NCBI GenBank assembly: GCA_040767155.1
Contig: JAXGPC010000005.1
Span: 63,492-127,491 of the forward strand
Origin: Anaerolineae bacterium
GTDB lineage: Bacteria > Chloroflexota > Anaerolineae > B4-G1 > SLSP01
Direction: 5' to 3'
DNA: 64,000 nt
Under the pieces are notes generated by a model. That model had not been told where the DNA came from. It saw only the letters and a program-made list of their open reading frames with translations, and searched no databases. Position 1 is the first letter of the stretch; the number at the start of each line of letters is the position of its first letter. Both the position numbers and the translations under genes were made by a program. Below are positions 29,419 to 48,345 of this stretch, one piece after another.

Positions 29419-29477
29419 GGCGTTTGCCTGCGGTTGGAGCACAGCCAGCATCGCACGACCGTGATGAGGAAGAGTCT

Positions 29478-30644: not shown

Positions 30645-32726
30645 ATGAGTCAGCGACATAAGCTAACTCGGCGCCAGTTCCTGTACCTGTCCACTCTGGC
30701 AACTGCTGGTGCGGTTGCTTCGGCTTGTGGCGGACCTCTTACCCCGGAGGTAACCGAGCCGGAGCCGACCGCAGTGCCCGCGGAGCCTACGGCTGTGCCA
30801 CCTACGGCCAAGCCCGATGAGCCAGAAGCGACGGCGAAGCCCGCGGAACCCACAGCGGTACCGGAGCCCGTGAGCATGTACAAGGAAGCCCCGATGCTGG
30901 CAGCTCTGGTGGCATCGGGCGATCTTCCCCCGGTTGAGGAGCGCCTGCCCCTGAACCCGTACGTTGTCGATTGTCGTGAGTCCATTGGCAAGTACGGCGG
31001 GAACCTCCGCCGTGGCTTCAAGGGCGTCTCTGATCGCTGGGGACCCACGAAGCACGTCGACCGGACCCTCGTCTGGCTGGATCGCGACATGAATCTAATC
31101 CCCCGTCTCATCGAGAGCTGGGACGTCAGCGACGATGCCAAGACGTTCACGTTCCACCTGCGCAAGGGTCTCAAGTACTCCGATGGCGTGGAAATGACCA
31201 GCGCGGACTTCAAGTGGTATTACGAACACTATGCCGCGCATCCGGATCTCCAGCCGGGCTTGTGGACGAAGCTGACGACGGTTGGCGAGGATGGCAAGAA
31301 GGTTCTGTGTGAGGCAGAGTTCCCCGATGACTACACCGTCGTCTACAAGTTTGCGCATCCGAATCCCCTTCTGATGTACCAGGGGCTGCGCGAACTCCAT
31401 GGGTTCTCTATGCCTTCTCACTACATGAAGCAGTTCCACATTGACACAACGGATGACGTGGCCGCCCTCGAAACAGCCACCACGGAGGCCGGATTCAACG
31501 CCTGGAACGAGTACTTCGAAGACCGCCATTTGTTCCATCTGAATCCGGAGCACCCGTGGCCCACGCCGTGGATTGCCAAGAACTCGCTCAATGAGGAACT
31601 CTTCATGATGGAGCGAAACCCCTACTACTTTGGCGTCGATCCCGAAGGGAACCAACTCCCGTACCTCGATACGGTCACGCATCGCCTGTTCGAGGCCATC
31701 GATGTTTTCAACCTTTGGATCGTGAACGGGGAAATCGACTTCCACAACCGCCACGTCGCGCTTGCCAACTACAGCCTCTTCAAGGAGAACGAGGCCAACG
31801 GCGACTACAAAGTATTTGTGGGTGTCAGCGCCGGCCATGATGCGCTTCAACTCAACCTGGCGACCAAGGAGCCCAAGCTCAACGAGTTCTTCAACACGCG
31901 CGATGTCCGCATTGCCATCTCCCACGCCATCAATCGAGATGAGTACAACGACCTGATCTACGATGGCATGTGTACGCCGCGTCAGTACAGCCCGATCTCG
32001 CTGTCGGCCAACTACTATCCCAAGCTGTCAGAGGCCTACATCGACTACGATCCTGATCTGGCGAACCAGATGCTCGACGATGCGGGGTACGACCAGCGTG
32101 ACTCTGAAGGCTATCGGATGTTCAAAGATGGCAGCGGCCCAATCAGTTTCATCATCGAGGGCACGGCTGAGCCCGGTAGCAGTGGTGAGGATGGGGTACT
32201 GCTGATCGTGAAGTACCTGAACGATGTCGGCATCAAGGCGACTTGGAAGTACTTTGAGCGCTCGCTCTACACCGAGCACTATGAAGCCAATGAGATCGAG
32301 GCGGCGTGGTGGGGCGGTGACCGTACGGTGCTTCCATTGGCACCTTCGGCGATCATCTTCCGCGGTGTACAGCCTGACCGGCCATGGGCGGCCGGCTTCG
32401 GTCTGTGGTGGGAGGATGCTACCGATCCCAATGGTGTTGAGCCACCCGAGGGGCACTTCATCTGGAAGATCTGGGAAGCCTGGGACAAAGTTGCCGCGTC
32501 CCCGGACCCCGCGGATCAGAACAAGCACTTCCAGGAGCTCCTGGATATCTGGGCCGAGGAGTTGCCGATGATCGGTGTGGTGGGCGAGATGCCTGCCCCC
32601 ATCATTGTCAAGAACGGCTTCCACAACTACCTGCCAGGCCAGCCCATCGATGATACGTCTGGCGATGAGCACCTGCTGCAGACGGAGTCCTACTTCTGGG
32701 ACGATCCAGACGCGCACGCGGCCTAG
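30645..32726 (+). CDS. ABC transporter substrate-binding lipoprotein, SBP family 5 (peptide/oligosaccharide), with Tat-like signal and a Pro/Thr/Ala-rich linker
   Basis: N-terminal RRQFLYLSTLATAGAVASACGG (twin-Arg plus lipobox Cys), then a low-complexity linker (EPTAVPAEPTAVPPTAKPDEPEATAKPAEPTAVPEP), then a family-5 SBP fold. Length 693 aa. Confidence 0.85.
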   Translation: MSQRHKLTRRQFLYLSTLATAGAVASACGGPLTPEVTEPEPTAVPAEPTAVPPTAKPDEPEATAKPAEPTAVPEPVSMYKEAPMLAALVASGDLPPVEERLPLNPYVVDCRESIGKYGGNLRRGFKGVSDRWGPTKHVDRTLVWLDRDMNLIPRLIESWDVSDDAKTFTFHLRKGLKYSDGVEMTSADFKWYYEHYAAHPDLQPGLWTKLTTVGEDGKKVLCEAEFPDDYTVVYKFAHPNPLLMYQGLRELHGFSMPSHYMKQFHIDTTDDVAALETATTEAGFNAWNEYFEDRHLFHLNPEHPWPTPWIAKNSLNEELFMMERNPYYFGVDPEGNQLPYLDTVTHRLFEAIDVFNLWIVNGEIDFHNRHVALANYSLFKENEANGDYKVFVGVSAGHDALQLNLATKEPKLNEFFNTRDVRIAISHAINRDEYNDLIYDGMCTPRQYSPISLSANYYPKLSEAYIDYDPDLANQMLDDAGYDQRDSEGYRMFKDGSGPISFIIEGTAEPGSSGEDGVLLIVKYLNDVGIKATWKYFERSLYTEHYEANEIEAAWWGGDRTVLPLAPSAIIFRGVQPDRPWAAGFGLWWEDATDPNGVEPPEGHFIWKIWEAWDKVAASPDPADQNKHFQELLDIWAEELPMIGVVGEMPAPIIVKNGFHNYLPGQPIDDTSGDEHLLQTESYFWDDPDAHAA

Positions 32727-33915: not shown

Positions 33916-33918
33916 AAG

Positions 33919-35103: not shown

Positions 35104-35119
35104 TGATAGGAGCACATCA

Positions 35120-36154
35120 GTGGACAGTAATGACCTGCTCGTAGAAGTAAAGAACCTGCAGACCTACTTCTTCCTCGATGAGGGTACGGTTCGTGCGGTG
35201 GACGGCTGCGATTTCGATATCCATAGAGGCGAAGTCCTGGGTGTTGTGGGGGAGAGCGGCTGTGGGAAAAGCGTCACTGCACGGTCGATTATCAGAATTG
35301 TGGCCAAGCCGGGTCGTATTGTGGGCGGGCAGATTCTCTACCACCGGCGTCCAAATGGCAGCGGGCATGGAGAGGTGATCGATCTGACGAAGCTTCCGCC
35401 GCAAGGGGATGAGATGCGCCACATCCGCGGTGGTGAGATCTCGATGGTTTTTCAGGAGCCGATGACGTCTCTTAGTCCGGTTCACACAATTGGCAATCAG
35501 ATTGTTGAGGGCATTGTGCTACACCAGAACGTGGGCCCGGAGGAGGCGCGCGCGCGGGCAATCGAAATGCTGGACTTTGTGGGCATGCCATTCCCCAGCC
35601 GCACCATCGATCAGTTCTCGTACGAACTCAGCGGCGGGATGCGCCAACGCGCGATGATCGCTATGGCTCTCTCCTGCAACCCCAGCCTCCTGATCGCTGA
35701 TGAGCCCACGACGGCTCTCGATGTGACGACCGAAGCTCAGATTCTCACACTTATGCGCCGCTTGCAGTATGAGTTGGGAATGGCGATTATGTACATCACC
35801 CACAACCTGGGCGTAGTCGCACAGATGGCCGAGAATGTGGTTGTGATGTACATGGGAAAGATCGTGGAACAGGCCGATGTCGACACGATCTTCCACAAGC
35901 CACTGCATCCGTACACGCGGGCGCTGCTGCATTCCATCCCGCGTCTGGGAACCAAGACTGCAGAGCGGCGACGCCTCGCCTCCATCAGAGGGATGGTACC
36001 TGATCCCTACGCGCTCCCCAGAGGTTGTGCGTTTCACCCGCGGTGCAGTGACATGAGACCCGGCATGTGTGACGAGGTTGAGCCGCCCATGGTTGAGGTG
36101 GAGCCGGGACACAAGGTTCGCTGCCATCAGATTGCCGAACTACCCCAACCATGA
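35120..36154 (+). CDS. Opp/Dpp-family ABC transporter ATP-binding protein, OppD/DppD-like
   Basis: Walker A GESGCGKS, signature LSGGMRQR, Walker [13 protein letters not shown] and C-terminal CAFHPRC motif. Confidence 0.85.
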
Positions 36155-36157
36155 GAT

Positions 36158-37885
36158 ATGAAAGCATTCCTGGTCTTCCCCCCCCATTGGCTACCAACCA
36201 TGCCTCATCTTGCGCTGCCGATGCTCACCGCATCGCTGCGAGCGACGGGGATCGAGGTCATCCAGCGCGACCTCAATGTGGAGGTCTTTGACAGCCTGCT
36301 GACCCAGGCCTATCTCGAAGATTCCCTGGCACGCCTGGCATCGGAGCCGCCTGCAACTCTCACGCCCACCACAGTGAGACATGCGCTCGATCACGGCGCT
36401 GACCTTGCCCGTCGGGTTACGTCGGCCAAGGCGGTGATTCGCGATGCACGTTTCTACGATGGCCAAACCAGCGTCGAAGCGTTTATGACACTGGTTCAGG
36501 GGCTGGAGTTGGCGTCAATGCCATTCCACCCTACAGAGTTCCAGATCACCAGGTTCGTACCTCCGGGGTCGGTTGACAGTAGCCGGACGTTGCTGCAACT
36601 GGTCGAGGACCCTGGACGCAACCCCTTCTACGCCGTCTTTCAACGTGGCATTGTCCAGGATATCCTCCACGAACTTCCAGACCTTGTGGGGATCTCTATC
36701 CCTACCATGGACCAGATGCTGGCAGGAATGACCCTGGCCTATCTGCTCAAGCGAGCAGGGTCACCAGCGCATGTGACGATCGGCGGCCCGCACATTACGA
36801 TGCTGCGCGAGCAACTCCTGAAAACGCCAGCGCTGTTCGATCTCTTCGATAGCGCAGTTGTCTTCGCCGGCGAGGGTCCGCTTCTGCGATTGATGGAAAC
36901 CATCGACCAGGGCCATGCTCTCTCCAAGGTGCCCAATCTGATCTATCGAGAGCGGGGACGAGTTCGTGCTACACCTGTGGTGCCGGCGGGGGACTGTGCA
37001 GTCGCCGACTCCCGGGGCCCTGACTTTGACGGTCTGCCGCTCGACAGGTACCTGACTCCTGAACTGATCCTGCCGTTGTTGAGCTCCTATGGGTGTTACC
37101 ACGGAAAGTGTGCGTTCTGCAACGTGGGGTATGGTGGACCAGATCGATTCCGGATGATGGACCCTGACCTCGTCGTGGACCAGATGCGCGCGCTCCGGCA
37201 ACGCTACGGTAGCCGTCACTTCTTCTTTTCTGATGAGGCCCTGACGCCGCGAACACTACGGGTTCTGTCGACGCGGCTTGCCGAAGGGGGAGATGACCTG
37301 GCCTGGTGTGGTTGCGCACGCCTCGATCCAGGCCTGACACGGGAGTTGCTGGAGACGATGGCGAGCGGTGGGTGTCGTATGCTTCTCTTTGGGTTGGAGA
37401 CGGCTGCCGAGTCGACGATCGCGCGGATGCATAAGGGTACCGAGCGACAGACGATGAGCCGCATCCTCCGCGATAGCGCGACGGCCGGAATGTGGAACCA
37501 TGCTTTCTTCTTCTTTGGTTTTCCAGGAGAAACGATGGAAGCGGCGCAGGAAACGGTGGATTTCCTCTATGCGCATCAGGATGCCATTCATTCGGCATCG
37601 CCCGGAGCCTTTCTCCTGGAACGCTACGCACCGGCGCACCGCGACCCGGCCAGCTATGGCATCACACGCATCCAGGAAGACCCTGTGCGCGATCTGGCCA
37701 TTTACTTCGACTATGACGTAGCTTCGGGACTGGACGAGGCCATGGCGGACCGCCTGGCGTCGAGGCTCGTCGATGTGCTGCCCAACAAGGCATTCGGACA
37801 GTACTATGTGGCAGATAGTTACCGGTTCCTGTATGCCAGCCATCTTTGGGACCACGGCGAGCGGTTTCCGCTCTGGTTGGCATAG
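36158..37885 (+). CDS. B12-binding-domain radical SAM protein (class B rSAM-like) with non-canonical cluster motif CYHGKCAFC (Cx4Cx2C)
   Basis: N-terminal cobalamin-binding-like Rossmann region (MKAFLVFPPHWLPTMPHLALPMLTASLRATGIEV). rSAM core SSYGCYHGKCAFCNVGYGG...FFFSDEALTP, then a C-terminal extension. It starts 4 nt after the oppD-like stop, so it is co-transcribed with the ABC transporter. Confidence 0.75.
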   Translation: MKAFLVFPPHWLPTMPHLALPMLTASLRATGIEVIQRDLNVEVFDSLLTQAYLEDSLARLASEPPATLTPTTVRHALDHGADLARRVTSAKAVIRDARFYDGQTSVEAFMTLVQGLELASMPFHPTEFQITRFVPPGSVDSSRTLLQLVEDPGRNPFYAVFQRGIVQDILHELPDLVGISIPTMDQMLAGMTLAYLLKRAGSPAHVTIGGPHITMLREQLLKTPALFDLFDSAVVFAGEGPLLRLMETIDQGHALSKVPNLIYRERGRVRATPVVPAGDCAVADSRGPDFDGLPLDRYLTPELILPLLSSYGCYHGKCAFCNVGYGGPDRFRMMDPDLVVDQMRALRQRYGSRHFFFSDEALTPRTLRVLSTRLAEGGDDLAWCGCARLDPGLTRELLETMASGGCRMLLFGLETAAESTIARMHKGTERQTMSRILRDSATAGMWNHAFFFFGFPGETMEAAQETVDFLYAHQDAIHSASPGAFLLERYAPAHRDPASYGITRIQEDPVRDLAIYFDYDVASGLDEAMADRLASRLVDVLPNKAFGQYYVADSYRFLYASHLWDHGERFPLWLA

Positions 37886-37958
37886 TGGGGCACGAAGACT
37901 GTGTGTAGGAGGCTAAGGCGGAGGTCTCTCGCTGCCTCCAGCTTATCGAGGTAGCCCG

Positions 37959-38411
37959 ATGCGAAGATTGGCAGACCAGATTGCCGTGTTCCTGGCCTGG
38001 GCCGTGGCTACGGCTCTCGGCTTCTGGGCCATGGTGGTGGTCAGGCAGGCTCTGATGTCAAGCCTGGCGGTGCACTATGTGGGGGATTCGGTACGGCGTG
38101 GCTGGGTCGCCCGTTTCTGGGGTCAGGCCTATTACGCGATCGCCGGGCTGGTCTACCTCATCTTCATCTTTGTCGTCGATGGCTATCTCAAGGATGGCAG
38201 GCCGAAGCGCGATGTGTTCCGACGATTTTGCGCCGTGGTTGGTGGTGAGCTTCTGATCATTTTCGTTGCCGATGTCGTGACGTCATGGGTGCAGAGTACT
38301 ATGCTTGGACACCTAAGTCGCATCCTGATACCGGTTGAGGGGATCATAGGCGTCACAATGGTGGTCTATGCGCGACTGCACAGGGCTGCGAACCAGCGGA
38401 TAAGCAAATAA
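37959..38411 (+). CDS. small integral membrane protein, about 4 TM, hypothetical
   Basis: Hydrophobic segments (IAVFLAWAVATALGFWAMVVV; YYAIAGLVYLIFIFVV; VVGGELLIIFVADVV; IIGVTMVVYA). Sits inside the same-strand cluster. Confidence 0.4.
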   Translation: MRRLADQIAVFLAWAVATALGFWAMVVVRQALMSSLAVHYVGDSVRRGWVARFWGQAYYAIAGLVYLIFIFVVDGYLKDGRPKRDVFRRFCAVVGGELLIIFVADVVTSWVQSTMLGHLSRILIPVEGIIGVTMVVYARLHRAANQRISK

Positions 38412-38487
38412 GCGCCGGGGCACAGAGCCGCCCGAGCTTGTCCTCCATTTATCAAGAACCTTCCTCTCCAGAAGGAGAACTACCGTC

Positions 38488-41061
38488 ATGACGACAACCT
38501 GCGCCCGCTATGCCCTACAGGACGGCTACATCCACAACTGGTTGGTCCTGGGACCTTGGATTGCTTCCAGCGAGGGTGCTCGTGGCCTTCTCGCGGACCG
38601 ATCCTCTGACCCCGTCGTCCGTGTCGAGGCCTTGGAGCCTGCCTCGGTTGATGATGGAATTGTGGCATTCGAGGACTTTGAGGGCCGCTGGCAGTATCAT
38701 TCCTGTGCGGAGGACCACTTCGTAGATCTTTCCGACTTCACCTGCAGCACTCTTCATCTCCCTTCGGACCGACACCTGGTTGCGTGGGCCTATGTAGAGC
38801 TCGAGGTGCCTGCTGCGGGACCGGTGGGTGCTGTGGTGACCACAGCCTGGCAGCAGGGAGACACATCCGCCAGTGTCTGGATCAACGGGCTCCCACTTTT
38901 GGACGGGGACCCCCCAGTTGATCTGTCGCCTTCTTCTCCTCGTAGCTCGCACCTCAAGATGGACCTGGAGGCGGGACGCAACAGGGTCCTGGTCCGCTTT
39001 GAAGTGGTCGCAGCACGACCGTGCGCCTTTGCTGTTGCCTTGCGGGTCGAGGACGTGGCAGCAACGGTGTGTCTACCTACGGCGATCGAGCGTATTGAGC
39101 GGCGGGAACGGTTGGAGCGGGTCTTTCGGGCGGCACAAACGGATCGTTATGTATTCGCCCGCGAGGACGAGATCCGGTTCCGTTGGCCGTCGAAGGATGA
39201 GCCTGGCGGTACCTTCGACGACGCGACGCACATGACGGCACGCCTGTGCTCCCGTTCCGGCAGGATCTATGTCGAGACCGATCGAACTGCGCTGGCAGGC
39301 GATGCGGTGCGTCTGTGTCACGCTTACCAGCAGATAGGCGGTGCTTTCGATCTGGTCCTGATGCCGAGGCCTCAAGAGTACTACGAGCACGGCATGCGCA
39401 TCAGCCGGGCTATTCCTCTGTGGAGCCTTGGTAACAACCGCTATACGGAGTCATCAACCGATACCTTGCTCGAGCGGCGACGCGAGGCACTCGTCAGTGC
39501 CGCACGCTATGAAGCCGGTATCTACTCCGAGCTCGCCAAAATGGCACTGGGTTGGTGGTCGTTTGTGGACGAGGACCGGCTGCTCAAGCGGGTTGAGTCT
39601 CTCGGCGCTTTGAGCGGGCGGGATTGTCGCGAGCTGTTGGGCTTCTTGGGCATGATGTGTCGTTTTGTGGAAAAGCCCGAGTTCCCCGAACGGTTGCGTG
39701 CTGGGCTTTTCGCGATGGTTCCGGCATTGGAGTTCCCCGCCATAGGAGACGAGCTGCGCCCGGAAATCGCAGGGGACCCCCATGAACTGGTTGAGGCTGT
39801 TTGCGCGATTCTCGCGGGCCAGCTCTGTCCTGATGCCCCTCCGGGCGCAGCGTCTCCGACCGGAGAGGCGCGTCGCGAGCACGGGGCGAGACAGGCGCTC
39901 GCCTGGATGCAGGCGGTTGCGGCGATGGGGTTACGCGCGTGGCATTCCGATGTCGCCTTTGAGGAGACCGTCCTGGCGCTGGCGCACCTGATTGGCTATG
40001 CCGACAGCGAAGAGGTGTGGCAAATGGCGACGGTGCTGCTCGACAAGCTGCTCTTCCAACTGGCTGTGAATTCCTTCATGGGCGTGTTTGGGACCAGTCG
40101 GGGCACGACGTCGACGGCACATCTCTTTGGTGGGCATCTAGCGGCCACATCGGGCATCACGAAGCTGCTCTGGGGACAGGGGGTCTTCAATCCCAGTTTT
40201 GCTGCAACGGTGAGCCTTGCATGCCTCACGGAGTACGAGGTTCCCCTTATGTTCGGGGACATCGCCACCCAATCACTTGAGGAGGGGCTCTGGAGCCGTG
40301 AACGTCACGGATTGGGAGGCGTCAGCACTGCCACGTTCAGGACCCCTGCGTCGATGCTCTCTGCAGCATTGGACTACCGGCCCGGCGAGCCAGGTGAGGA
40401 AGAGCATATCTGGCAGGCCACGTGGGGTCCTGCGGCGACCGTCTTTGTAACGCACCCCGCCGCCAGCAGTCTGAGCGATGCGTGGGGCCCCAACTTCTGG
40501 CGTGGCAACGGCGTTCTCCCACGGGTGGCACAGTGGCGCGATGCTCTGATTGCCCTGTATGCCTTGCCTGCTGATGATTGGATGGGCTTCACCCACGCAT
40601 ACTTCCCAATGGTTGCATTTGATGAAGGGGCTGTCCGTGGCCGGTGGGCTTTTGCTCGCAAGGGAGACGGCTACCTGGCACTGGGAGCCAGCCAGGATCT
40701 CTTGCTGATACGCACCGGAGAGTCGGCCTACCGTGAGTTGCGTGTCAAGGGACGGCACACGGTCTGGCTCTGTCAGATGGGGCGAGCCTCGGAAGATGGC
40801 GACTTCGCCACATTCCAGGAGAAGGTCCAGGCGCTCTCGGTCACCTATGGCGAACTCAGTGTGTGCTGGGAAACGCTGCGCGGTGACACGCTCGCCTTTG
40901 ATTGGACAGGCCCATTCCTCAGGAATGGTGAACCTCTGGCTCTTTCAGTGGAGAACGCGATCGAGAACCCCTACTGTTCTGCTGGCTTCCCCACTGATGC
41001 GATGGAAATCCGTCACGGCGATGTGGCGATGCGGCTCGACTTCGCCACACATCGCTCATAG
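38488..41061 (+). CDS. large cytoplasmic protein (857 aa) whose C-terminal half is paralogous to the two downstream proteins; possible heparinase II/III-like (alpha/alpha-toroid plus beta-sandwich) polysaccharide lyase or hydrolase family, unverified
   Basis: AAGGAG RBS before ATG. C-terminal motifs shared with 42309-44237 and 44256-46178: YRPGEPGEEEHIWQATWG / YRAGKPGYQQHIWQATL; NFWRGNGVLPRVAQ / NYWAGNGVMPRAAQHEN; FTHAYFPMVAFDE / FSHAYFPTEAFDE; FARKGDGYLAL / FGRKGDGYVAL. N-terminal roughly 200 aa look like a beta-sandwich (galactose-binding-like) domain. No signal peptide. Confidence 0.65.
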   Translation: MTTTCARYALQDGYIHNWLVLGPWIASSEGARGLLADRSSDPVVRVEALEPASVDDGIVAFEDFEGRWQYHSCAEDHFVDLSDFTCSTLHLPSDRHLVAWAYVELEVPAAGPVGAVVTTAWQQGDTSASVWINGLPLLDGDPPVDLSPSSPRSSHLKMDLEAGRNRVLVRFEVVAARPCAFAVALRVEDVAATVCLPTAIERIERRERLERVFRAAQTDRYVFAREDEIRFRWPSKDEPGGTFDDATHMTARLCSRSGRIYVETDRTALAGDAVRLCHAYQQIGGAFDLVLMPRPQEYYEHGMRISRAIPLWSLGNNRYTESSTDTLLERRREALVSAARYEAGIYSELAKMALGWWSFVDEDRLLKRVESLGALSGRDCRELLGFLGMMCRFVEKPEFPERLRAGLFAMVPALEFPAIGDELRPEIAGDPHELVEAVCAILAGQLCPDAPPGAASPTGEARREHGARQALAWMQAVAAMGLRAWHSDVAFEETVLALAHLIGYADSEEVWQMATVLLDKLLFQLAVNSFMGVFGTSRGTTSTAHLFGGHLAATSGITKLLWGQGVFNPSFAATVSLACLTEYEVPLMFGDIATQSLEEGLWSRERHGLGGVSTATFRTPASMLSAALDYRPGEPGEEEHIWQATWGPAATVFVTHPAASSLSDAWGPNFWRGNGVLPRVAQWRDALIALYALPADDWMGFTHAYFPMVAFDEGAVRGRWAFARKGDGYLALGASQDLLLIRTGESAYRELRVKGRHTVWLCQMGRASEDGDFATFQEKVQALSVTYGELSVCWETLRGDTLAFDWTGPFLRNGEPLALSVENAIENPYCSAGFPTDAMEIRHGDVAMRLDFATHRS

Positions 41062-41082
41062 TCAATCCAGGAGGTTTCTCAC

Positions 41083-42240
41083 ATGGCAAAGACAGGCGTA
41101 GGTGCACGTTGGGAATCGGAATTGTCCGTCCACCAGGACCCGAAGAGCGGGGCCACGGTCCACCAGTTGACAGCCTATAAGGGCCATAGTAGCCACTTCT
41201 ACTTCACATATCCGTGCTGGTATGACAAGGGCAGAAAGATCGTGTTCACCTCCGATCGCGAGAACCGGACGAACCTGTTTGGCGTTGACCTGGAGAGCGG
41301 CGAAATTACCCAGCTCACGGATTTTGACTCTGCGGAGGGAGGTGTCGGTGGTCTGAGCAAGAACCCGGTACGAGAGGAGATCTACTTCCACCGTGGTAGG
41401 GTCTTGACAGCGCTCGACCTGACGACGCTGGAGCAGCGTCCGATCTATACGCGCCCTGAAGGCTACGTGGGTGGCAGTTCGAATGCGACGGCTGACGGCA
41501 AGACCATCTGTGTGGGACACTACAAGGATCTCTCGGATCGCTTTATGATCGATCTGGGTCACGGCTACGTTGGTTTCCGCGAGATCTGGGAAGCCCATCC
41601 GCCCTCAACGATCTTGAAGATCCCGGTCGAGGGCGGCACCCCTGAGGTGATCTATCAGGAGGATTATTGGTTGGGGCACTTCAACTGCTCGGGTAAGCAC
41701 CCCAACATTATGACCTTCTGTCACGAGGGACCGTGGACACTGGTAGAGAATCGGATCTGGGGCCTTGACCTCAATACGGGTGAAGCTTGGCAGATCCGCC
41801 CCAATGCGCCTGGCGAGGCGATCGGGCACGAGTACTGGATGAGCGATGGCGAGCACATCGGTTACCACGGCACCACGCCGCAGGGGCCGGTCTACGGCGC
41901 GATCCGTTACGACAACACCGATCAAGTCGAGGCACCCTTTGAGGGGCATTGCTGGCATTTTCACAGCCATATGCTTGAGCTGGTGGTCGGTGACGGCGAT
42001 GCCAAGGATCCGTATCTGCTGCTGTGGCGCTTTCACGAGGGGGCGTTCGAAGGGCCAAAGGTCCTCGTCTGGCACCGCGGCTCTTTCCATACACAGCGGG
42101 TCCACCTCCACCCTTGCTTCAACAGCGAGGGGACGCAGGTGATCTATACGGCTGACCCACAGGGGTATGGGCAGGTCTTTGCTGTAGATGTGCCGGCGTG
42201 GGAGACGCTTCCTGACTTGGCCGATGTGAAGGCGAGGTGA
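41083..42240 (+). CDS. ogl: oligogalacturonide lyase (PL22 family, Ogl-like beta-propeller)
   Basis: Aligns with enterobacterial Ogl: TFCHEGPWTLVENRIW vs AFCHEGPHDLVDARMW; LELVVGDGDA vs TLLVGDGADA; HLHPCFNSEGTQVIYTAD vs HPHPSFTPDDKQVLFTSD. 385 aa, cytoplasmic. Confidence 0.8.
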   Translation: MAKTGVGARWESELSVHQDPKSGATVHQLTAYKGHSSHFYFTYPCWYDKGRKIVFTSDRENRTNLFGVDLESGEITQLTDFDSAEGGVGGLSKNPVREEIYFHRGRVLTALDLTTLEQRPIYTRPEGYVGGSSNATADGKTICVGHYKDLSDRFMIDLGHGYVGFREIWEAHPPSTILKIPVEGGTPEVIYQEDYWLGHFNCSGKHPNIMTFCHEGPWTLVENRIWGLDLNTGEAWQIRPNAPGEAIGHEYWMSDGEHIGYHGTTPQGPVYGAIRYDNTDQVEAPFEGHCWHFHSHMLELVVGDGDAKDPYLLLWRFHEGAFEGPKVLVWHRGSFHTQRVHLHPCFNSEGTQVIYTADPQGYGQVFAVDVPAWETLPDLADVKAR

Positions 42241-42247
42241 TATGATG

Positions 42248-42278
42248 CGGGGCGGCGCTGCGGGTGAGCGCCGCCCCG
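42248..42278 (+). other. perfect GC-rich stem-loop between ogl and the downstream paralog gene
   Basis: GGGGCGGCGC-tgcgggtga-GCGCCGCCCC, a 10-11 bp perfect stem with a 9-nt loop and no U-tract. Candidate intercistronic RNA processing/stability element or attenuator. Confidence 0.4.
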
Positions 42279-42308
42279 ACGCTATCACCAACTGACACAG
42301 AGGCATTC

Positions 42309-44237
42309 ATGCAGGACGAGTTCTGGCGTGAGCCGCGCTTCACCTTCGAAGAGCGGCGGCAGCAGTATCTGGCGTATTGTGCAGCGCAGTCGCCGGGTGG
42401 GCGAATTGGTTTCTTCAGCCAGATTGCTCGGCTCGAGTTGGGGCAGCCTGTGGATGAGGGGCCAATTCGCGAAGCGTTGGCCTTTGTCGACTCCAGGAAG
42501 GACTGTGTTGACTTCACGATCGCAGGTCTGCTGCGGATTATCTACCGTTATGATCAGAGCCCAAACATCGCCACGGGCCTGATTGCTGACATCGAGACCT
42601 GTCTGCTTGGGTTCAAGTACTGGTGGGACGAGCCGGGCGATAACAGGCGTTGTTATCACACGGAGAACCACCAGATTCTCTTCCACTCCGACGAGCTGTT
42701 GTTGGGACAGCGGCTAAGGGACCGCACCTTCACCAACGATGGCCGGAACTGGCGGGCGCATATGGCGCACGGGCTGCGCCTCACACGTCGCTGGCTCGAC
42801 CACCGGGCGCGCTTCGGCTATAGTGAGTGGCTGTCCAACTGCTACTTCGAGGAGGACCTTCTCGCTCTGCTCAACCTCTACGACTTCGCTGAGGATGAGG
42901 GGGTTCGGCGTCAAGCAAAGGCGCAGATCGATGTCCTGCTCTTTGAGATGGCATTGCACACGTATCGCGGGATCTTCGGTGCGACCCATGGCCGCACCTA
43001 CCCCCGCCTGATCAAGGGTGCCCGTGGCGAGGCAACAGCCTCGACGACCAAACTCATCTTCGGGATGGGCCACTTCAACGATCCAAGTGCCCTCGGGGCC
43101 GTCTCTCTTGCTGCGAGCTCCTATCGTTGTCCACCTATCCTTCAGAGGATTGCGGCAGATCTGGACCGCCCCATGGTGTTCCGGGAGCGCCACAGCCTCA
43201 ATCTGGAGGATGCCCCGGCTTTTGGCATTGCCTATGACAGCCTTGAAGATGGTGGCTTGTTCTGGAGTGTCCAGGACTGTATGTGCCCGGCGGTCCTTCC
43301 CCTGGCGGACTACATGGCTGTCTTGCAGGGGGTCTATGTCTATGACAATTCTCAAGAGATCTATGACGGAGCCTTTGCCTGGCAGATCGAGGAACACGGT
43401 GAGGTGGTGGATCTTGATGTCGATCGTCACGCACTCACTGAGGTGCACATCCAGACCTACCGCACGCCAGACTATCTGCTGAGCTGTGCTCAGGACTACC
43501 GCGCCGGCAAGCCCGGCTACCAACAACACATCTGGCAGGCAACGCTGGACCTCGATGCCGTGGTCTTCACCAGCCACCCTGGCTCTGACGATGAGACCTC
43601 TCGTCCCAACTACTGGGCCGGAAATGGGGTTATGCCACGTGCCGCCCAGCACGAGAACGTCCTGGTCTGTATCTACCACCTGCCGTCCAGGGACGCCTTC
43701 CCTTTCAGCCATGCCTACTTCCCCACTGAAGCGTTCGACGAGGTTGTGGAATGCTCCCCGTGGATCTTCGGTCGCAAGGGCGATGGATACGTCGCCTTGT
43801 TCTCCCAACACCCCTGGCATTGGGTCGGTGCCGGTGATACGCCGCGCACCGATCTGCGCGTAGACGCCGTAGACAATGTCTGGCTCGTTGAGATGGGACG
43901 CAAGCGCACAGGCGAGCACGGAGGGGATTGGGATAGCTTTGACGCGTTTATCCGTGCCATCGCTGCAAGTCCCGTGTCGTGCGACGGATTGTCAGTCAGT
44001 TACGTTTCCCCTTCCCGGGGAGAGGTACGTTTCGGTTGGCATGGCCCGCTGATGGTGCGGCGACAGCAAGTCGCGCTCCGGAGTGATTTGCGATACGACA
44101 ATCCCTACTGCCGCTGTCTGGCCCCGCGCGGCTCTTCCCCGGGGAATGGTCAAGCGACCGATGGGTTGGCGTTCACCGTCCGGCGCGGCGATGACGTCCT
44201 CGATATCGATCTTCAGCTTCTAGCTCCGCCACGCTAA
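42309..44237 (+). CDS. paralog A of an uncharacterised large cytoplasmic protein family (about 640 aa; possible heparinase II/III-like lyase, unverified)
   Basis: Preferred start is ATG 42309 (MQDEFWREPRFTFEERRQQYLAYCA), which aligns with the paralog B start MEDIYWDSPQATYEERRLQYLALCA. The ORF-track GTG at 42264 lies inside the upstream hairpin. Shared motifs along the full length: KYWWDEP, CYHTENHQI, FGYSEWLSNCYFEEDL, ALHTYRG and YHLP...FPFSHAYFPT. Confidence 0.7.
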   Translation: MQDEFWREPRFTFEERRQQYLAYCAAQSPGGRIGFFSQIARLELGQPVDEGPIREALAFVDSRKDCVDFTIAGLLRIIYRYDQSPNIATGLIADIETCLLGFKYWWDEPGDNRRCYHTENHQILFHSDELLLGQRLRDRTFTNDGRNWRAHMAHGLRLTRRWLDHRARFGYSEWLSNCYFEEDLLALLNLYDFAEDEGVRRQAKAQIDVLLFEMALHTYRGIFGATHGRTYPRLIKGARGEATASTTKLIFGMGHFNDPSALGAVSLAASSYRCPPILQRIAADLDRPMVFRERHSLNLEDAPAFGIAYDSLEDGGLFWSVQDCMCPAVLPLADYMAVLQGVYVYDNSQEIYDGAFAWQIEEHGEVVDLDVDRHALTEVHIQTYRTPDYLLSCAQDYRAGKPGYQQHIWQATLDLDAVVFTSHPGSDDETSRPNYWAGNGVMPRAAQHENVLVCIYHLPSRDAFPFSHAYFPTEAFDEVVECSPWIFGRKGDGYVALFSQHPWHWVGAGDTPRTDLRVDAVDNVWLVEMGRKRTGEHGGDWDSFDAFIRAIAASPVSCDGLSVSYVSPSRGEVRFGWHGPLMVRRQQVALRSDLRYDNPYCRCLAPRGSSPGNGQATDGLAFTVRRGDDVLDIDLQLLAPPR

Positions 44238-44255
44238 ACATAAAGGAGAGCTTCT

Positions 44256-46178
44256 ATGGAGGATATCTACTGGGACAGCCCGCAAGCGACGTATGAGGAA
44301 CGCCGGCTGCAATATCTGGCGCTCTGTGCGACCGAGCCGGTGCCACAGCGGGGCCCGGGCCGCAGGATAGGGTGTTTTGGCCAGATCGCGCGCCTTGAGC
44401 TCGGGCTGCCGGCAAGTGAAGGACCGCTCCGCGATGCCATAGCCTATGCTGACTCGCGCGAGGACTGCTGTGACTTTGCCGTCGGGGGGCTGCTCCGCAT
44501 TCTCTATCTCTACGATGACAGCCCCAACCTTGCGTCAGACCTGGTCGCCGATATCGAGGCGTGCCTCTTGCGCTTCAAGTACTGGTGGGACGAACCCCTG
44601 GGCGACAATGATCGCTGCTATCATACTGAGAACCACCAGATCATCTTCCATGCTGATGAGCTTCTTGCGGGTCAGCGCTTCAAAGGGCAGGTCTTCTCGA
44701 ATAGCGGGCAGACTGGAAGCTACCATGTAGACCATGCGCTACACTTCATCCGGCGCTGGCTTGATTTCCGCGAGCGCTTCGGCTACAGCGAGTGGCTCTC
44801 CAACTGCTACTTCGAGGAAGACCTGCAAGCCCTGGTGAACCTTCACGACTTTGCCGAAGACCCGGAAATCCGCCGGCGGGCCAGGGCGCAGATCGACGTG
44901 ATCCTCTTTGAGATGGCGCTGCATACGTACCGCGGGGTCTTTGGCTCCACGCATGGGCGGAGCTATGCCTTCCTGCTCAAGGGCGGGCGTCACGAAGGCT
45001 CGGCCTCGACGGTAAAGTTGATGTTTGGTATGGGCCTCTTCAACCACGCCAGCCAGGGGACCGTGTCCCTGGCGACAAGCACATACCGCTGTCCGCCGCT
45101 CATCGCCGAGATTGCCGCCGACCTCGACGAACCACTCCTGGCCCGGGAGCGGCATAGCCTGAACATGGAGGATGCGCCGGCCTGGGGGCTCTCCTACACC
45201 GACCCTGAGGATGGTCACCTTTACTGGAGCGTCCAGGATTACACGCATCCCGCGATCTATGACCTGGCACAGGAGACCCGGCGGCTGCGACAGATCATGC
45301 TCTACGAGGACTATCAGGCACGCTATGACCAGATCCTGCAGTGGCAAGTCGATGAGTCCGGCGAGGTCGTCGACCAGGACATCGATTGCCATGCGATGAC
45401 AGAGGTGCATATTCAGACTTATCGCACCCCGTCCTATATGTTGAGCTGCGCTCAGGACTATCGGCCTGGCAAGCCGGGCTACCAACAGCATCCCTGGCAG
45501 GCGACGCTGGGCATCGATGCTGTCGTTTTCACGAATCATCCCGGTGCTGCAGACGAGATCTCGCGCCCCAACTACTGGGCTGGGAATGGCATCTTGCCCC
45601 GCGCCGCGCAACACGAGAACATACTGGTTTGCCTCTACCATCTCCCTGCCAACGACGCCTTCCCCTTCTCACACGCTTACTACCCGACCGGCGCGTTCGA
45701 TGAGGTGCTGGAGCGCGAGCAATGGGTGTTCGGGCGAAAGGGGCATGGGTATATCGCACTCTATACACAGCATCCGGGGTATTGGCTTCCCGATGGTGAT
45801 CAGCCACGGGTGGAACTGCGTGTGGAAGCCCCGGACAACATCTGGCTTGTCGAGATGGGACAGCAGTCGGCGTGGGGTAGTTTTGAGGCGTTCGTCGAGG
45901 CGATCGCCTCGAGCCCTGTGAAGTGCGAAGGTCTGTCGCTGCGGTATGTCTCACCGTCTCAAGGCGAGGTGACCTTCGGCTGGCGGGGCCCGCTACGGGT
46001 TGGGGGCAATGAAGCCCCACTCAGAAGCAATCTGCGCTATGATAATCCCTATTGCCAGTGGGCGCCGCCATTTCCCGGCGAATCCCCGGACGAGGACCGT
46101 GACCAGAGGGTGCTTTCAATCCGGCGTGGCGATGCGGTGCATCGCATCGACTTTGCGTATCGCGGAGACGTAGGCTAA
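44256..46178 (+). CDS. paralog B of the same family (640 aa), tandem duplicate of 42309-44237
   Basis: Roughly 60-70% identical by eye to paralog A over the whole length. AAAGGAGAG RBS upstream. Confidence 0.7.
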   Translation: MEDIYWDSPQATYEERRLQYLALCATEPVPQRGPGRRIGCFGQIARLELGLPASEGPLRDAIAYADSREDCCDFAVGGLLRILYLYDDSPNLASDLVADIEACLLRFKYWWDEPLGDNDRCYHTENHQIIFHADELLAGQRFKGQVFSNSGQTGSYHVDHALHFIRRWLDFRERFGYSEWLSNCYFEEDLQALVNLHDFAEDPEIRRRARAQIDVILFEMALHTYRGVFGSTHGRSYAFLLKGGRHEGSASTVKLMFGMGLFNHASQGTVSLATSTYRCPPLIAEIAADLDEPLLARERHSLNMEDAPAWGLSYTDPEDGHLYWSVQDYTHPAIYDLAQETRRLRQIMLYEDYQARYDQILQWQVDESGEVVDQDIDCHAMTEVHIQTYRTPSYMLSCAQDYRPGKPGYQQHPWQATLGIDAVVFTNHPGAADEISRPNYWAGNGILPRAAQHENILVCLYHLPANDAFPFSHAYYPTGAFDEVLEREQWVFGRKGHGYIALYTQHPGYWLPDGDQPRVELRVEAPDNIWLVEMGQQSAWGSFEAFVEAIASSPVKCEGLSLRYVSPSQGEVTFGWRGPLRVGGNEAPLRSNLRYDNPYCQWAPPFPGESPDEDRDQRVLSIRRGDAVHRIDFAYRGDVG

Positions 46179-46202
46179 CGGCGGAAGGACTGCGATCGTT
46201 CG

Positions 46203-47225
46203 ATGCTATCGACTCGTGCTCCACTCCTCGAGGTAAAGGATCTCAAGACCTACTTCCAGATGGAAGGCGGGACCATTCACGCTGTCGATGGCGCCAGTCT
46301 CACGATGCACGTTGGAGAGACCGTGGGGGTCGTAGGAGAGAGCGGATGTGGTAAGTCCGTGATGGCACTGTCGATCCTCGGGATTGTGCCCTCGCCTGGC
46401 AGGATTGTGGGAGGGCGGATTCGCTTCTATCGCGGTGCGGGCGAGGGTGGTGAGCCGGTCGAGCTTTCGGCGCTGGACCCCAAGGGCGACATGATGCGCG
46501 CCATTCGTGGGCTCGACATTGCCATGATCTTCCAGGAGCCGACGTCCGCGCTCAGTCCCGTGTATACGATCGGGCAGCAGATCGTCGAGGCGCTTCGCCT
46601 TCACCGTGATCTCTCACGCGCTCAGGCCCGCCAGCAGGTTGTCGAGATGCTCGGTAAGGTTGGCCTGCCCGACCCGGAGCGTACGATCGACCGCTATCCC
46701 CACCAACTCAGCGGTGGTATGTGCCAGCGCGCCATGATCGCGATGGCACTTTGCAGCTATCCCGATCTCTTGATTGCCGATGAGCCGACCACGGCGCTGG
46801 ACGTGACGACTGAGGCACAGATCCTGCACCTGATGCGTTCGTTGCAGGAGGAATTCGGCATGGCGATCATGTTCATCACCCACAACCTGGGGGTCATCGC
46901 GCAGATGGCGGACCGCGTGGTTGTGATGTACCTGGGAGAGGTGGTAGAAGAGGCGCGCGTCTACGACATCTTCTACCACCCCTTCCACCCCTATACCCAG
47001 GCGTTGTTGAACGCCATTCCCCGGTTGGGACGCAAGGGCACCACGACACCCAGGCGTAAGCTGGCCGAGATTCGCGGCGGTGTTCCCGATGCCTATTCGA
47101 TTCCCCGTGGATGTCGATTCCACCCACGATGCGTCCATATGCGTCCAGGGCTTTGCGACACCGATCGCCCCCCTTACGTCACTCCTGACCCGGAGCACTC
47201 CGTCCGCTGTGTGTTGTACCGTTGA
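46203..47225 (+). CDS. second Opp/Dpp-family ABC ATP-binding protein, OppD-like; extra copy at the end of the cluster
   Basis: Walker [29 protein letters not shown] and CRFHPRC. Similar to 35120-36154 ([11 protein letters not shown]... vs [12 protein letters not shown]...). Confidence 0.8.
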
Positions 47226-47280: not shown

Positions 47281-48345
47281 TCACGATGCCCAGGAGAACC
47301 CGGGCCCCTGAGGGATGGGAGCGCACCCATCGGTGAGGGCGAAGGGCGAGTCTTTCCCGATAAGCCCCGTCTCCAGATAGATCGCGTTGGGCAGGCTGGC
47401 CATGACGTTGAGCTGGACAGGGCCACCACCGTGTGAGGCGTAAGGGCGCCGGAACGCAGCCGCCGTCGTCCCAATCTGCAGCATTGCAGTCGGTCCACCG
47501 GCGCGACGCAGGTCGGGTTGGATGATGTCGACGGCATCGCGCCGCAGGAAGCGCGCAAAGTCGGCCCGCGTGTAGAGGTTCTCCCCTGTCGCGACGGGAA
47601 TATCGAGTGCCTGAACCAGTGCCGCGTAGCCGTCGATGTCATCGGCGGCGATGGGCTCTTCCCACCAGAGGCATCCCAGTTCCTGGAAAGCCCGTCCGCG
47701 TCGGATGGCCTCAGCCGTCGAAAGCGACTGGTTAGCGTCGACCATGAGGTCAACGCTGTCACCGATGGCTTTGCGAACTGCTTCGACGCGGGCGATGTCC
47801 TCTTTGAGAGTCGCCGCGCCTACTTTGATCTTCACCCCGCGAAACCCCTGAGCGACTGCCATCGACGCGATGTCGGTGAGGGTGTCGAGGCCATAGTTGA
47901 GCCAGCCCACCATAGCATAGGCGGGGATCTGCGTGTGCACGCCTCCCCAGAGCTGCCAGCAGGGCACGCCCAGCGCCTTTCCCTGGCAATCCCACAGCGC
48001 TGTGTCGATCGCAGCGATGCCGAAGGTCGCCAACCCTGCGGTGCCGTGGTACTCAGTCTCGCGGACCATCGCCTCGTGGGTGGCTGCGACGAATGCTGGG
48101 TCGGTCCCGACAACCAGCGGCTCGAGTTCGTGCTTGATGAGCGCTGCGAGAGCATCCGGGCCACCGCCAATGCGACCGAAACTCGCGTCGCCGCTCCCCC
48201 AGATCGTGGCACCGTGATGGGTTGCGTCAGTGTGCAGTGTTACGCGCACCGATCCGGCGCCTGGCAGGCTCTGAAGGGCATCCCGGATAGGGTTCGGATT
48301 GGGGGTTTGGTGTGTGACCGTGATCTCCATGCGGGTGATTTTCAC
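47281..48345 (-). CDS. enolase-superfamily enzyme (mandelate racemase / muconate lactonizing enzyme family; probable acid-sugar dehydratase or cycloisomerase)
   Basis: MR/MLE fold motifs: KIKVGA...DANQS...WWEEP...ATGENL, the metal-ligand D/E/D pattern. 354 aa. Encoded divergently at the end of the uronate cluster. Confidence 0.8.
   Translation of the reverse strand: MKITRMEITVTHQTPNPNPIRDALQSLPGAGSVRVTLHTDATHHGATIWGSGDASFGRIGGGPDALAALIKHELEPLVVGTDPAFVAATHEAMVRETEYHGTAGLATFGIAAIDTALWDCQGKALGVPCWQLWGGVHTQIPAYAMVGWLNYGLDTLTDIASMAVAQGFRGVKIKVGAATLKEDIARVEAVRKAIGDSVDLMVDANQSLSTAEAIRRGRAFQELGCLWWEEPIAADDIDGYAALVQALDIPVATGENLYTRADFARFLRRDAVDIIQPDLRRAGGPTAMLQIGTTAAAFRRPYASHGGGPVQLNVMASLPNAIYLETGLIGKDSPFALTDGCAPIPQGPGFSWAS

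Follow-up and report, generated by a model that had tools for sequence, protein, structure and literature searches.

Two adjacent genes of an Anaerolineae bacterium and their many relatives (about 4,700 clusters at 50% identity for the superfamily) appear to encode beta-eliminative lyases of a novel sequence family, which would act on uronic-acid-containing oligosaccharides after their uptake; we put the probability of this reading at roughly 0.55. The family is called undescribed here in the sense that it has no sequence relative in Pfam, in NCBIfam or among solved structures, and polysaccharide lyase (PL) families without structures may include it. A predicted lyase-type fold, together with adjacency and fusion to GH88, an enzyme consuming lyase products, suggests that this is probably an undescribed lyase family. 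From homology, fold, residue conservation, operon structure and conservation of context, we infer the lyase chemistry, the roles of individual residues and the type of substrate.

The genes lie in a sugar-import operon in a window (the whole stretch analysed) of 64,000 nt, positions 63,492-127,491 of the forward strand of JAXGPC010000005.1 (GCA_040767155.1; Chloroflexota; Anaerolineae; B4-G1; SLSP01). We call them B (42309..44237, 642 aa) and C (44256..46178, 640 aa), and their longer paralog A (38488..41061, 857 aa). All three open reading frames are present on the + strand where an earlier note on this DNA had placed them, but its 643 residues for B are 642 plus the stop codon. The start of B at ATG 42309 is backed by homology to C, and a GTG at 42264 is formally possible for the ORF. 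A lies upstream and B and C downstream of an oligogalacturonate-lyase homolog (PL22-like, 41083-42240), so that the paralogs do flank ogl as described. There is no fourth paralog elsewhere in the 64-kb window: an 860-aa ORF at 2788-5370 and a 640-aa ORF at 9320-11242 were rejected as glycogen-phosphorylase-like and helicase-related, respectively. A scan for an operon promoter or terminator gave nothing exceeding shuffled expectation.

B and C are collinear paralogs, as had been proposed, with 63% identity and 77% similarity over their full length. Every B/C motif quoted in the earlier note was found verbatim: MxDxF/YW..P..TF/YEERR.QYLA.CA, KYWWDEP, CYHTENHQI and FGYSEWLSNCYFEEDL, and in the C-terminal part YR(A/P)GKPGYQQH.WQATL, NYWAGNG..PRAAQHEN, FPFSHAY(F/Y)PT.AFDEV and FGRKG.GY.AL. 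The C-terminal block, once aligned, is also found in A, in the diverged form YRPGEPGEEEHIWQATW, NFWRGNGVLPRVAQWRD, GFTHAYFPMVAFDEG and FARKGDGYLAL; across some 260 aa, its identity to B and C is 38-40% (E 1e-49 to 2e-54), a sequence likeness that far exceeds chance. The earlier note had likened A to its neighbors in this block only and missed that A also has, at residues 326-610, a homolog of the helical domain found at the N terminus of B and C (29-30% identity, E 1e-24). A thus corresponds to a B/C protein with about 320 additional N-terminal residues and lacking a helical insert of about 70 residues. Tandem duplication, the suggested route of diversification, applies to B and C alone: A types and B/C types are ancient subfamilies, each conserved in its own right, and many genomes carry both. 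B has an ortholog at 91% identity in another locus (L007), and dN/dS values of 0.08-0.12 indicate that strong purifying selection acts on B and C; the A-type subclade to which A belongs is still under purifying selection as well. By inspection, none of the three has an evident signal peptide, in line with the earlier reading: B and C open straight into the conserved domain, and A starts with a beta-strand that is conserved and forms part of the fold.

That the earlier note could assign no family was borne out by database searches. A, B and C gave no match in Pfam (E ≤ 1), in NCBIfam or, with phmmer, among all PDB chain sequences, and a family profile (hmmsearch) found nothing in all PDB sequences at E ≤ 10. 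This last search excludes, at the sequence level, the PL families with a solved structure, leaving those without one. Among 33 members searched against Pfam at E ≤ 5, only weak GH2_N2 matches appeared, in the N-terminal domain of some A types, and Hepar_II_III (PF07940), Alginate_lyase and DUF4962, the Pfam domain of human dermatan-sulfate epimerase 1 (DS-epi1), were absent. The B. fluxus homolog WP_009126040 likewise had no heparinase- or alginate-lyase-type Pfam match. The family does not qualify as heparinase II/III-like by its sequence; one of its UniRef entries bears the name "Heparinase II/III-like protein." That no sequence-level link ties the family to any PL counts against the lyase reading. 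No account of the family was found in the literature on GH76/GH125/GH88/GH67/GH97 loci, MAN-PUL1, glucuronomannan lyases and recent PL families, and the fucoglucuronomannan lyase FdlA was rejected as a relative, being a beta-helix and hence unrelated.

AlphaFold models (pTM 0.87-0.90) predict an alpha-helical toroid with a beta-sandwich, the lyase-like architecture that had been suspected from the size and the conserved residues. The significant full-length fold matches were all to uronate lyases (PL35, PL15, PL8, PL12, and PL39) or to dermatan-sulfate epimerase, and Foldseek matches with E ≤ 1e-3 were likewise all to lyases or DS-epimerase. On these models, the family belongs to the toroid plus beta-sandwich class of uronate lyases and epimerases (PL8/12/15/17/21/35/39 and DS-epi). 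In B, the order is toroid, helical insert and beta-sandwich, and the same holds for C (residues ~13-290, ~300-370, and ~385-632, respectively); A starts with a GH2-N-like jelly roll, followed by a beta-sandwich, the helical toroid and a C-terminal beta-sandwich. Structural alignments with the PL35 glycosaminoglycan (GAG) lyases (GAGase II/VII, PDB 8KHV/8KHW; chondroitinase 9O3Q) gave only 8-10% identity with no HMM match, and B and C differ from them by the additional helical insert of ~70 aa and by their setting, which is not of GAG type: the window contains neither sulfatases nor GAG PUL genes. Identity to human DS-epi1 (PDB 6HZN), a eukaryotic biosynthetic epimerase, was 7-11%. The cytoplasmic exo-type enzymes of PL15 (Atu3025, 3A0O/3AFL) and PL17 (9IRQ) show no sequence likeness to the family, which lacks their Hepar_II_III and alginate-lyase Pfam domains and whose neighbors (PL22-like, GH4, GH88, GH97, GH67, GH76, and GH125) do not indicate alginate.

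A residue census over 120 B/C-type proteins and 79 loci from Chloroflexota, Bacteroidota and other phyla revealed that E125, N126, H127, Y185, R235, Y237, Q410, Q411, H412, W414, Q415 and W441 never vary and that Q452 is almost as constant (196/199); B keeps every family-invariant residue. N126, H127, Y185, R235, Y237 and H412 are the predicted active-site candidates in C, where H412, H428 and H473 are candidate metal ligands. In the model, N126/H127 and Y185 lie at the N-terminal ends of alternate helices (H125-141 and H183-199). The spacing is 58-59 residues from N126/H127 to Y185 and 227 residues from there to H412, or about 157 without the insert. PL35 GAGase II uses Asn192, Tyr246 and His401, with gaps of 54 and 155 residues (PMC12088678), and DS-epi1 uses His205, Tyr261 and His450, with gaps of 56 and 189 and a Mn site in the sandwich (PMC8006597). 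By their spacing and conservation, N126/H127, Y185 and H412 may be equated with these lyase and epimerase triads. H412, H428, H473, N439 and N444 are highly conserved across the A, B and C types, in a pattern unlike the H-x-H(-x-D) of DS-epi1 and PL35: the Mn/base motif His401-x-His403-x-Asp405 of PL35 and the His-x-His of DS-epi1 are replaced by Q-Q-H-x-W. The base or else the metal ligand must then be a different one, which speaks against the lyase reading.

At the positions of N126, H127, Y185 and H412, A of the window has P, H, A and H, and its A-type subclade has lost the putative catalytic Asn and Tyr and the HGR.Y motif. The earlier mention of three enzymes is therefore probably overstated. 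A itself is probably not a lyase, because these residues are lost although the fold and the beta-sandwich core are kept; its role may instead be that of an accessory or binding subunit, or its chemistry may have changed.

The context of the family in other genomes points to uronate-containing glycans. In Chloroflexota, its genes are accompanied by LacI or hybrid sugar regulators, Opp-type ABC transporters, PL22-like and GH4 genes, and acid-sugar dehydratases. In 37 loci, mostly of Bacteroidota (L036-L072), GH88 adjoins the family in 26, and GH97 is found in 24, GH76 in 16, GH125 in 15 and GH67 in 13. In one further locus (L034), GH28 and GH115 flank the family gene, and a PL22-like gene comes next. 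Niastella and Paraflavitalea have fusions of the family with GH88, which make up at least nine clusters at 90% identity. GH88 requires the product of a lyase, an unsaturated uronide. Two minimal PULs (L044 and L052) hold only an ECF-sigma/FecR pair (in L052, only FecR lies within the stretch covered), SusC/D, the family, GH88 and GH97, with no known PL. Such GH88 PULs could also scavenge unsaturated oligosaccharides from other organisms, a point against the lyase reading. The family proteins of Chloroflexota lack signal peptides and those of Bacteroidota carry them, a pattern that in both phyla fits action on imported oligosaccharides. The intracellular role in uronate oligosaccharide processing suggested by the earlier note is thus strongly supported by the association with PL22-like, GH4, GH88, GH67, GH115, GH28 and acid-sugar dehydratase genes and by the GH88 fusion.

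The same associations bear on what kind of enzyme this is. The proteins could be glycoside hydrolases with an (alpha/alpha)-toroid, like GH8, GH76, GH88 or GH105, that cleave at or next to uronate or mannose residues, in which case the link to GH88 and PL22 would reflect a common substrate rather than the supply of a lyase product. We consider this rather unlikely, since the matches spanning both domains are exclusively to lyases or DS-epimerase, the polar residues that are strictly conserved (Asn-His, Tyr, Arg, and His) are of the lyase/epimerase type, and the minimal PULs would then hold a GH88 enzyme with no source of unsaturated substrate. Still less probable are uronyl C5-epimerases, or other enzymes exchanging the C5 proton, which would resemble DS-epimerase in acting at the oligosaccharide level and ready an epimer for downstream enzymes. 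The need of GH88 for an unsaturated uronide leaves its close coupling and fusion to the family unexplained by epimerization, and we know of no bacterial catabolic locus that needs GlcA/IdoA epimerization at the oligomer level.

A functional analogy for the preferred lyase reading is given by PL27 and PL42. These exo-acting Rha-alpha-1,4-GlcA lyases remove the 4-O-substituent of GlcA, so that GH88 or GH105 receives an unsaturated GlcA, which is the kind of step that the minimal PULs, with their family gene, GH88 and GH97, lack. Neither PL27 nor PL42, the latter a beta-propeller, is among the structural matches of the family, and no rhamnosidase or AGP context was seen at family loci.

In the window, the operon is preceded directly by a one-protein hybrid regulator (25007..28795, +; Pfam Peripla_BP_3, HisKA, HATPase_c, Response_reg, and HTH_18/AraC) that joins a LacI-type sugar-binding sensor to a histidine kinase, a receiver and an AraC-type HTH; L008 and L051 contain homologs about 30% identical to it. 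Then follow, all on the + strand, a stand-alone response-regulator receiver (29008..29418; Response_reg, E 4e-11), the first of three Opp/Dpp-type ABC ATPases (29424..30530; ABC_tran and oligo_HPY, as in the other two), a family-5 solute-binding protein of 693 aa (30645..32726; SBP_bac_5, E 9e-54), presumed to be the oligosaccharide receptor, two permeases (32926-33915 and 33919-35103; BPD_transp_1 and OppC_N) and the second ATPase (35120..36154); the third (46203..47225) is the last gene of the operon. In L004 and L006, genes for this transporter set are linked to LacI regulators as well as to family genes, and the permeases are 65-92% identical in L005, L006, L008, L011, L021 and L035. Between transporter and paralogs lie a class-B (B12-binding) radical SAM protein of 575 aa (36158..37885, +; B12-binding and Radical_SAM), with only subthreshold NCBIfam matches, to C- and P-methyltransferases, and a small hydrophobic multi-TM protein of 150 aa predicted from translation (37959..38411, +), with no Pfam or NCBIfam match and with homologs in L006-L012. 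A 159-aa ORF in L005 was rejected as a further homolog of the latter, being the N-terminal piece of a radical SAM gene that is split there. The radical SAM gene is kept beside A-type genes in L005-L011; it has no place in the pathway proposed below, which argues against that pathway.

The PL22-like gene (41083..42240, +, 385 aa) encodes a predicted beta-propeller matching PF14583 with 115.9 bits (cutoff, 30) over profile positions 12-383 of 386, and its product matches PDB 3c5m (E 4e-30) and 3pe7 (E 5e-29). Alignment to these structures keeps R (LVENRIW), H (GHEYW), H (CWHFHSH) and Q..H.H (QRVHLHP), which correspond to the catalytic Arg/His and Mn-binding His/Gln residues of YeOGL. With a full-length profile match and these aligned residues, the gene qualifies as a PL22 homolog, and its dN/dS is 0.03-0.05. 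It is only about 30% identical to characterized Ogl (3PE7 and 3C5M), so its substrate may differ; the likeness to Ogl concerns this neighbor only, the propeller being unrelated to A, B and C. Convergent to the operon is an enolase-superfamily gene (47281..48345, −; MR_MLE_N and MR_MLE_C), whose nearest NCBIfam models, all subthreshold, are L-talarate/galactarate, arabinonate and galactonate dehydratases and which is 76-91% identical in L007-L011. Peptide uptake, as a reading of the Opp-type transporter with the MR_MLE gene, was rejected in view of the sugar-type regulators and CAZyme neighbors, and so was a dipeptide epimerase, the closest models being acid-sugar dehydratases.

Many Anaerolineae B/C-type genes lie outside any carbohydrate cluster (L001-L003, L013, L016, and L023), which also weighs against the lyase reading, and no carbohydrate genes were found near one family protein, P0022. 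With these neighborhoods, the conserved radical SAM and Opp-type ("peptide") transporter genes and the lack of candidate catalytic residues in A, the family, or at least A, might be noncatalytic or unrelated to carbohydrates and its place in the operon incidental; this is quite likely for the noncatalytic or unrelated character of A alone and very doubtful as a whole, given that the association with uronate-active CAZymes recurs in at least two phyla whose transport systems differ and extends to GH88 fusion, that B and C combine low dN/dS with an invariant polar set, and that sugar-type regulators (LacI, hybrids with a Peripla_BP sensor, and HTCS) govern the loci.

If B and C are lyases, the hybrid sugar-sensing regulator would turn the operon on and the Opp-type system would take up an acidic oligosaccharide, from which cytoplasmic B and C would remove the C5 proton of a 4-O-substituted uronate. 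The Asn/His pair that starts an inner toroid helix (N126/H127) would neutralize the carboxylate, Y185, at the start of the next inner helix, and H412, in the beta-sandwich, would serve as acid and base, and the conserved His cluster of the sandwich would probably hold a metal. The 4,5-unsaturated uronide would pass to the PL22-like enzyme, or to GH88 in Bacteroidota, and the acid-sugar products to the adjacent enolase-type dehydratase. More tentatively, and with less expectation of being right, these could be exo- or oligosaccharide lyases of a new PL family that strip GlcA of its 4-O-substituent in glycans of glucurono-mannan type, or in others from fungi, algae or plants, and feed the orphan GH88 of mannan-type Bacteroidota PULs, with a degenerate A-type partner and a recruited B12 radical SAM protein in Chloroflexota. 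This last pair hints at an extra, undescribed step of modification or demodification of the acidic sugar.

Were B, C and their relatives lyases, some 4,700 "hypothetical" clusters (50% identity) would become a new polysaccharide-lyase family. This would offer a testable explanation for GH88 PULs with no recognized lyase, including the abundant GH76/GH125/GH67/GH97/GH88 loci of human-gut Bacteroides, and would point to a degradation pathway not yet described for an acidic glycan, possibly a GlcA-decorated mannan or galactoside. A would be a further case of a conserved, catalytically degenerate paralog beside active ones, and Anaerolineae, common inhabitants of sediments and digesters, would have a wider carbohydrate repertoire than is now known.

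The three ORFs claimed by the earlier note, with every motif it listed, were present on the plus strand at the positions given. They encode proteins of 857 (paralog A, 38488-41061), 642 (B, 42309-44237) and 640 residues (C, 44256-46178), with a 385-aa gene separating A from B. In pairwise alignment, B and C share 63% identity from end to end. The C-terminal block attributed to A was also confirmed, residues 605-852 matching residues 372-635 of B and C (38-40% identity; E of 1e-49 to 2e-54). The homology extends beyond this block, the only one noted for A, since the helical domain matches too (A 326-610 versus B/C 12-303; 29-30% identity, E about 1e-24). These two blocks of A are collinear with B and C, and the region common to the three is therefore the entire B/C protein. 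Relative to it, A is extended by about 320 residues at the N-terminus and lacks an insert of about 70. No fourth paralog was found within the 64-kb window. The suggested diversification through tandem duplication holds for the B/C pair, the only recent tandem duplication among the three, and not for A.

Searches of Pfam and NCBIfam with A, B, and C returned no match, and neither did phmmer against PDB sequences, in agreement with the earlier failure to recognize any family signature. A 31-sequence profile of the family matched no PDB sequence even at E ≤ 10, and 33 diverse members searched against Pfam at E ≤ 5 matched no lyase family. Among the scored candidates, 938 matched C and 190 matched A, the matches coming chiefly from MAGs of Anaerolineae and other Chloroflexota. 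Profile search of 1.84 billion representatives gave 4,712 clusters at 50% identity (E ≤ 1e-3), 1,236 of them at E ≤ 1e-30. Scanning one genome per GTDB species revealed 558 family loci, including Bacteroidota (Bacteroides fluxus, B. stercorirosoris, B. timonensis, B. nordii, Dysgonomonas, Niastella, Paraflavitalea, and Mucilaginibacter), Armatimonadota, Latescibacterota, Planctomycetota, and Leptospiraceae. With one exception, the source names encountered were "hypothetical protein"; the B. fluxus protein is a "Heparinase II/III-like protein" in one UniRef record and hypothetical at NCBI. Our literature search found no paper describing the family, which does not disprove that one exists. Independent tandem pairs of B/C-type genes were found in a Thermodesulfobacteriota MAG (L077, 3718-7553) and a Bacteriovoracaceae MAG (L080, 1477-5546), and tandem duplication of the family therefore recurs outside Chloroflexota. 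In B. nordii (L066, 9932-11856), the gene is apparently divided into two ORFs (169 and 513 aa), which may be a frameshift or pseudogene in that strain's assembly.

The AlphaFold2 model of C (pLDDT 84.7, pTM 0.90) comprises a helical domain (~13-290), a helical insert (~300-370), and a beta-sandwich (~385-632). That of A (pLDDT 85.9, pTM 0.87) has two N-terminal beta domains followed by the helical domain and beta-sandwich as in C. Fold comparison scored highest with the PL35 chondroitinase 9O3Q (12.3), followed by DS-epimerase 1 (11.4, 406 residues aligned), GAGase II (10.4), heparinase II and PL40 (9.0 each), PL17 (8.6), and heparinase III and PL39 (8.5 each). The 12 Foldseek matches at E ≤ 1e-3 (DS-epi1, PL35, PL15 Atu3025, PL8, PL39, and PL12) were all toroid-plus-sandwich lyases or DS-epimerase. 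Global TM-scores were low (0.17 to 0.34), and the relationship is therefore distant. The models thus have a modest predicted likeness to known lyases and, with Foldseek, support the toroid and beta-sandwich guess at the level of fold only.

Across 120 B/C-type proteins and 79 loci from several phyla, E125, N126, H127, Y185, R235, and Y237 (C numbering) were invariant, as were Q410, Q411, H412, W414, Q415, and W441; Q452 was close to invariant (196/199), and H428 and H473 nearly so. In the model of C, two alternate helices, H125-141 and H183-199, carry N126/H127 and Y185, respectively, at their N-terminal ends. The spacing is 58-59 residues from N126/H127 to Y185 and 227 from Y185 to H412 (about 157 without the insert). 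In PL35 GAGase II, Asn192, Tyr246, and His401 are spaced by 54 and 155 residues (PMC12088678), and in DS-epi1, His205, Tyr261, and His450 by 56 and 189 (PMC8006597). The residue set and spacing fit a putative His/Tyr lyase-type site, the roles being assigned from spacing alone. The beta-sandwich of both known enzymes also holds a Mn site; the family motif QQHxW differs from their H-x-H(-x-D).

The A types fall into two groups in the combined alignment. "Canonical" members keep SENHQ, SNCYFEED, THGRTY, and YQQH, all of which are lost in a second subclade formed by the window's A and relatives P0121-P0127; their counterparts in A are GDPHELV, SDVAFEET, TSRGTTS, and EEEH. Of 120 A types, 82 keep the Asn, 88 the His, and 80 the Tyr. 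Judged by these residues, A is catalytically degenerate, though homologous to B/C over both domains. Its beta-sandwich core is still present (H640, W642, Q643, H656, W671, N674, Q682, and H703), and dN/dS relative to the ortholog in the nearest relative, L007, is 0.215, higher than that of C (0.12) or the PL22-like gene (0.03). Accordingly, A is a maintained gene but, having lost the candidate catalytic motifs, probably not a lyase. An 808-aa protein of locus L006 (19166-21592), lacking any Pfam match, belongs to the superfamily as a third subfamily (24% identity, with an hhalign probability of 100%); SENH, SNSYF, and THGRSY are retained in it, and PSTHVAQVT replaces YQQHxWQAT.

The genes spanning 29008-47225 all share a single strand and are separated by short gaps. 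They encode, in order, a receiver domain, an Opp-type ATPase, a family-5 solute-binding protein, two permeases, a second ATPase, a B12-binding radical SAM protein, a 150-aa membrane protein, A, the PL22-like protein, B, C, and a third ATPase. For one binding protein and two permeases there are three ATPase genes (29424-30530, 35120-36154, and 46203-47225), the third lying apart from the transporter genes, with seven other genes in between. A hybrid regulator of 1,262 aa (25007-28795) is encoded upstream, with Peripla_BP_3 (LacI-type, sugar-binding), HisKA/HATPase histidine kinase, receiver, and AraC HTH domains, followed by the stand-alone receiver (29008-29418). It is functionally analogous to the HTCS of Bacteroidetes but differs in its sensor domain, and has homologs of ~30% identity in L008 and L051. 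Solved oligogalacturonate lyase (Ogl) structures align with the PL22-like protein along its entire length, and their aligned Arg, His, and Gln-x-x-His-x-His are conserved in it. Downstream and convergent (47281-48345, minus strand), an enolase-superfamily protein is nearest to L-talarate/galactarate, arabinonate, and galactonate dehydratases, all below NCBIfam cut-offs; its gene is kept beside the cluster in L007-L011 (76-91% identity). Elsewhere in the window, a 406-aa ORF (49521-50741) unusually pairs a mechanosensitive-channel beta-domain with a C-terminal ParB N-terminal domain, and three consecutive minus-strand genes (7086-13016) carry Helicase_C_3 domains, one an XPB/ERCC3-type helicase (589 aa) and two (742 and 639 aa) with that domain only.

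The window order (radical SAM, membrane protein, A, PL22-like, B/C, dehydratase) is repeated in L007-L012. Both B and C occur only in L007, the other loci having A and a single B/C-type gene. The class-B radical SAM and 150-aa multi-TM genes (36158-38411 in the window) adjoin A-type genes in several Chloroflexota loci (L005, 3402-5077; L006, 8692-9129 and 12960-14693); in NCBIfam, the former has only sub-threshold matches, to RiPP and PhpK-type methyltransferases. A B/C-type gene accompanies LacI and an Opp-type ABC system in L004. The A-type gene of L005 is found with Opp permeases, radical SAM, GH4, a PL22-like gene, DUF6807, and GFO/IDH/MocA, and that of L006 with LacI, an ABC system, the small membrane protein, a lyxose-isomerase-like cupin, and the B12 radical SAM. 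GH4 is present alongside the family in L005, L008, L014, L021, L027, L035, and L063.

In the 37 loci L036-L072, mostly of Bacteroidota, GH88 is adjacent to the family in 26, GH97 in 24, GH76 in 16, GH125 in 15, and GH67 in 13. GH88 enzymes hydrolyze 4,5-unsaturated glucuronides, which only lyases make. The B. fluxus homolog carries a signal peptide and lies in a PUL with GH76, GH125, GH88, GH97 (alpha-galactosidase-like), GH67, an MFS transporter, HTCS, and SusC. Two minimal PULs flanked by housekeeping genes (L044 and L052) contain nothing but an ECF-sigma/FecR pair (of these two genes, the sequence examined in L052 includes FecR only), SusC/D, the family gene, GH88, and GH97. The family gene of L034 has GH28 on one side and GH115 on the other, and a PL22-like gene comes after them. 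Niastella and Paraflavitalea fuse the family domain to GH88 in a single secreted protein of ~1,000 aa, a fusion forming at least nine clusters at 90% identity.

Mannose-rich PULs containing GH88 are already on record, with a tentative assignment to glucuronomannan, and GH88 substrates arise only through lyases (PMC6298971). Because of its lyase-type fold, its adjacency and fusion to GH88, and its presence in PULs without a recognized lyase, the family is the obvious candidate for the missing lyase, and we give the lyase reading a probability of about 0.55. Against it, Pfam and PDB-sequence searches connected the family by sequence with no PL family, many B/C-type genes of Anaerolineae have uninformative neighbors, and two conserved neighbors, the B12 radical SAM and the membrane protein, have no explained role in a sugar-acid locus. 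A hydrolase is unlikely, the Foldseek matches being lyases or DS-epimerase; an epimerase, which would leave the coupling to GH88 unaccounted for, is more doubtful still. A non-catalytic or unrelated protein, set against residues invariant across phyla, is the least probable of the named readings for the family, and the remaining probability is assigned to none of them. Under the lyase reading, the PL22-like enzyme and GH4 would take in Chloroflexota the roles of GH88 and GH97/GH67 in Bacteroidota. The cytoplasmic (Chloroflexota) and periplasmic (Bacteroidota) locations point to action on imported oligosaccharides, as for the PL15 and PL17 oligo-uronate lyases. Judging from the recurrent partner genes, the substrate may be a glycan that carries glucuronic acid and is decorated with alpha-galactosyl or alpha-glucosyl groups, often together with alpha-1,6-mannan. 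Fold and context thus favor, for the family, the predicted uronate-processing, lyase-like role first proposed. Given the Pfam, NCBIfam, and PDB-sequence searches, we would best class it as a family new in sequence that belongs to an already known class of fold and mechanism. The family is large, unannotated, and present in gut Bacteroides, and it offers a directly testable answer to PULs having GH88 but no lyase.
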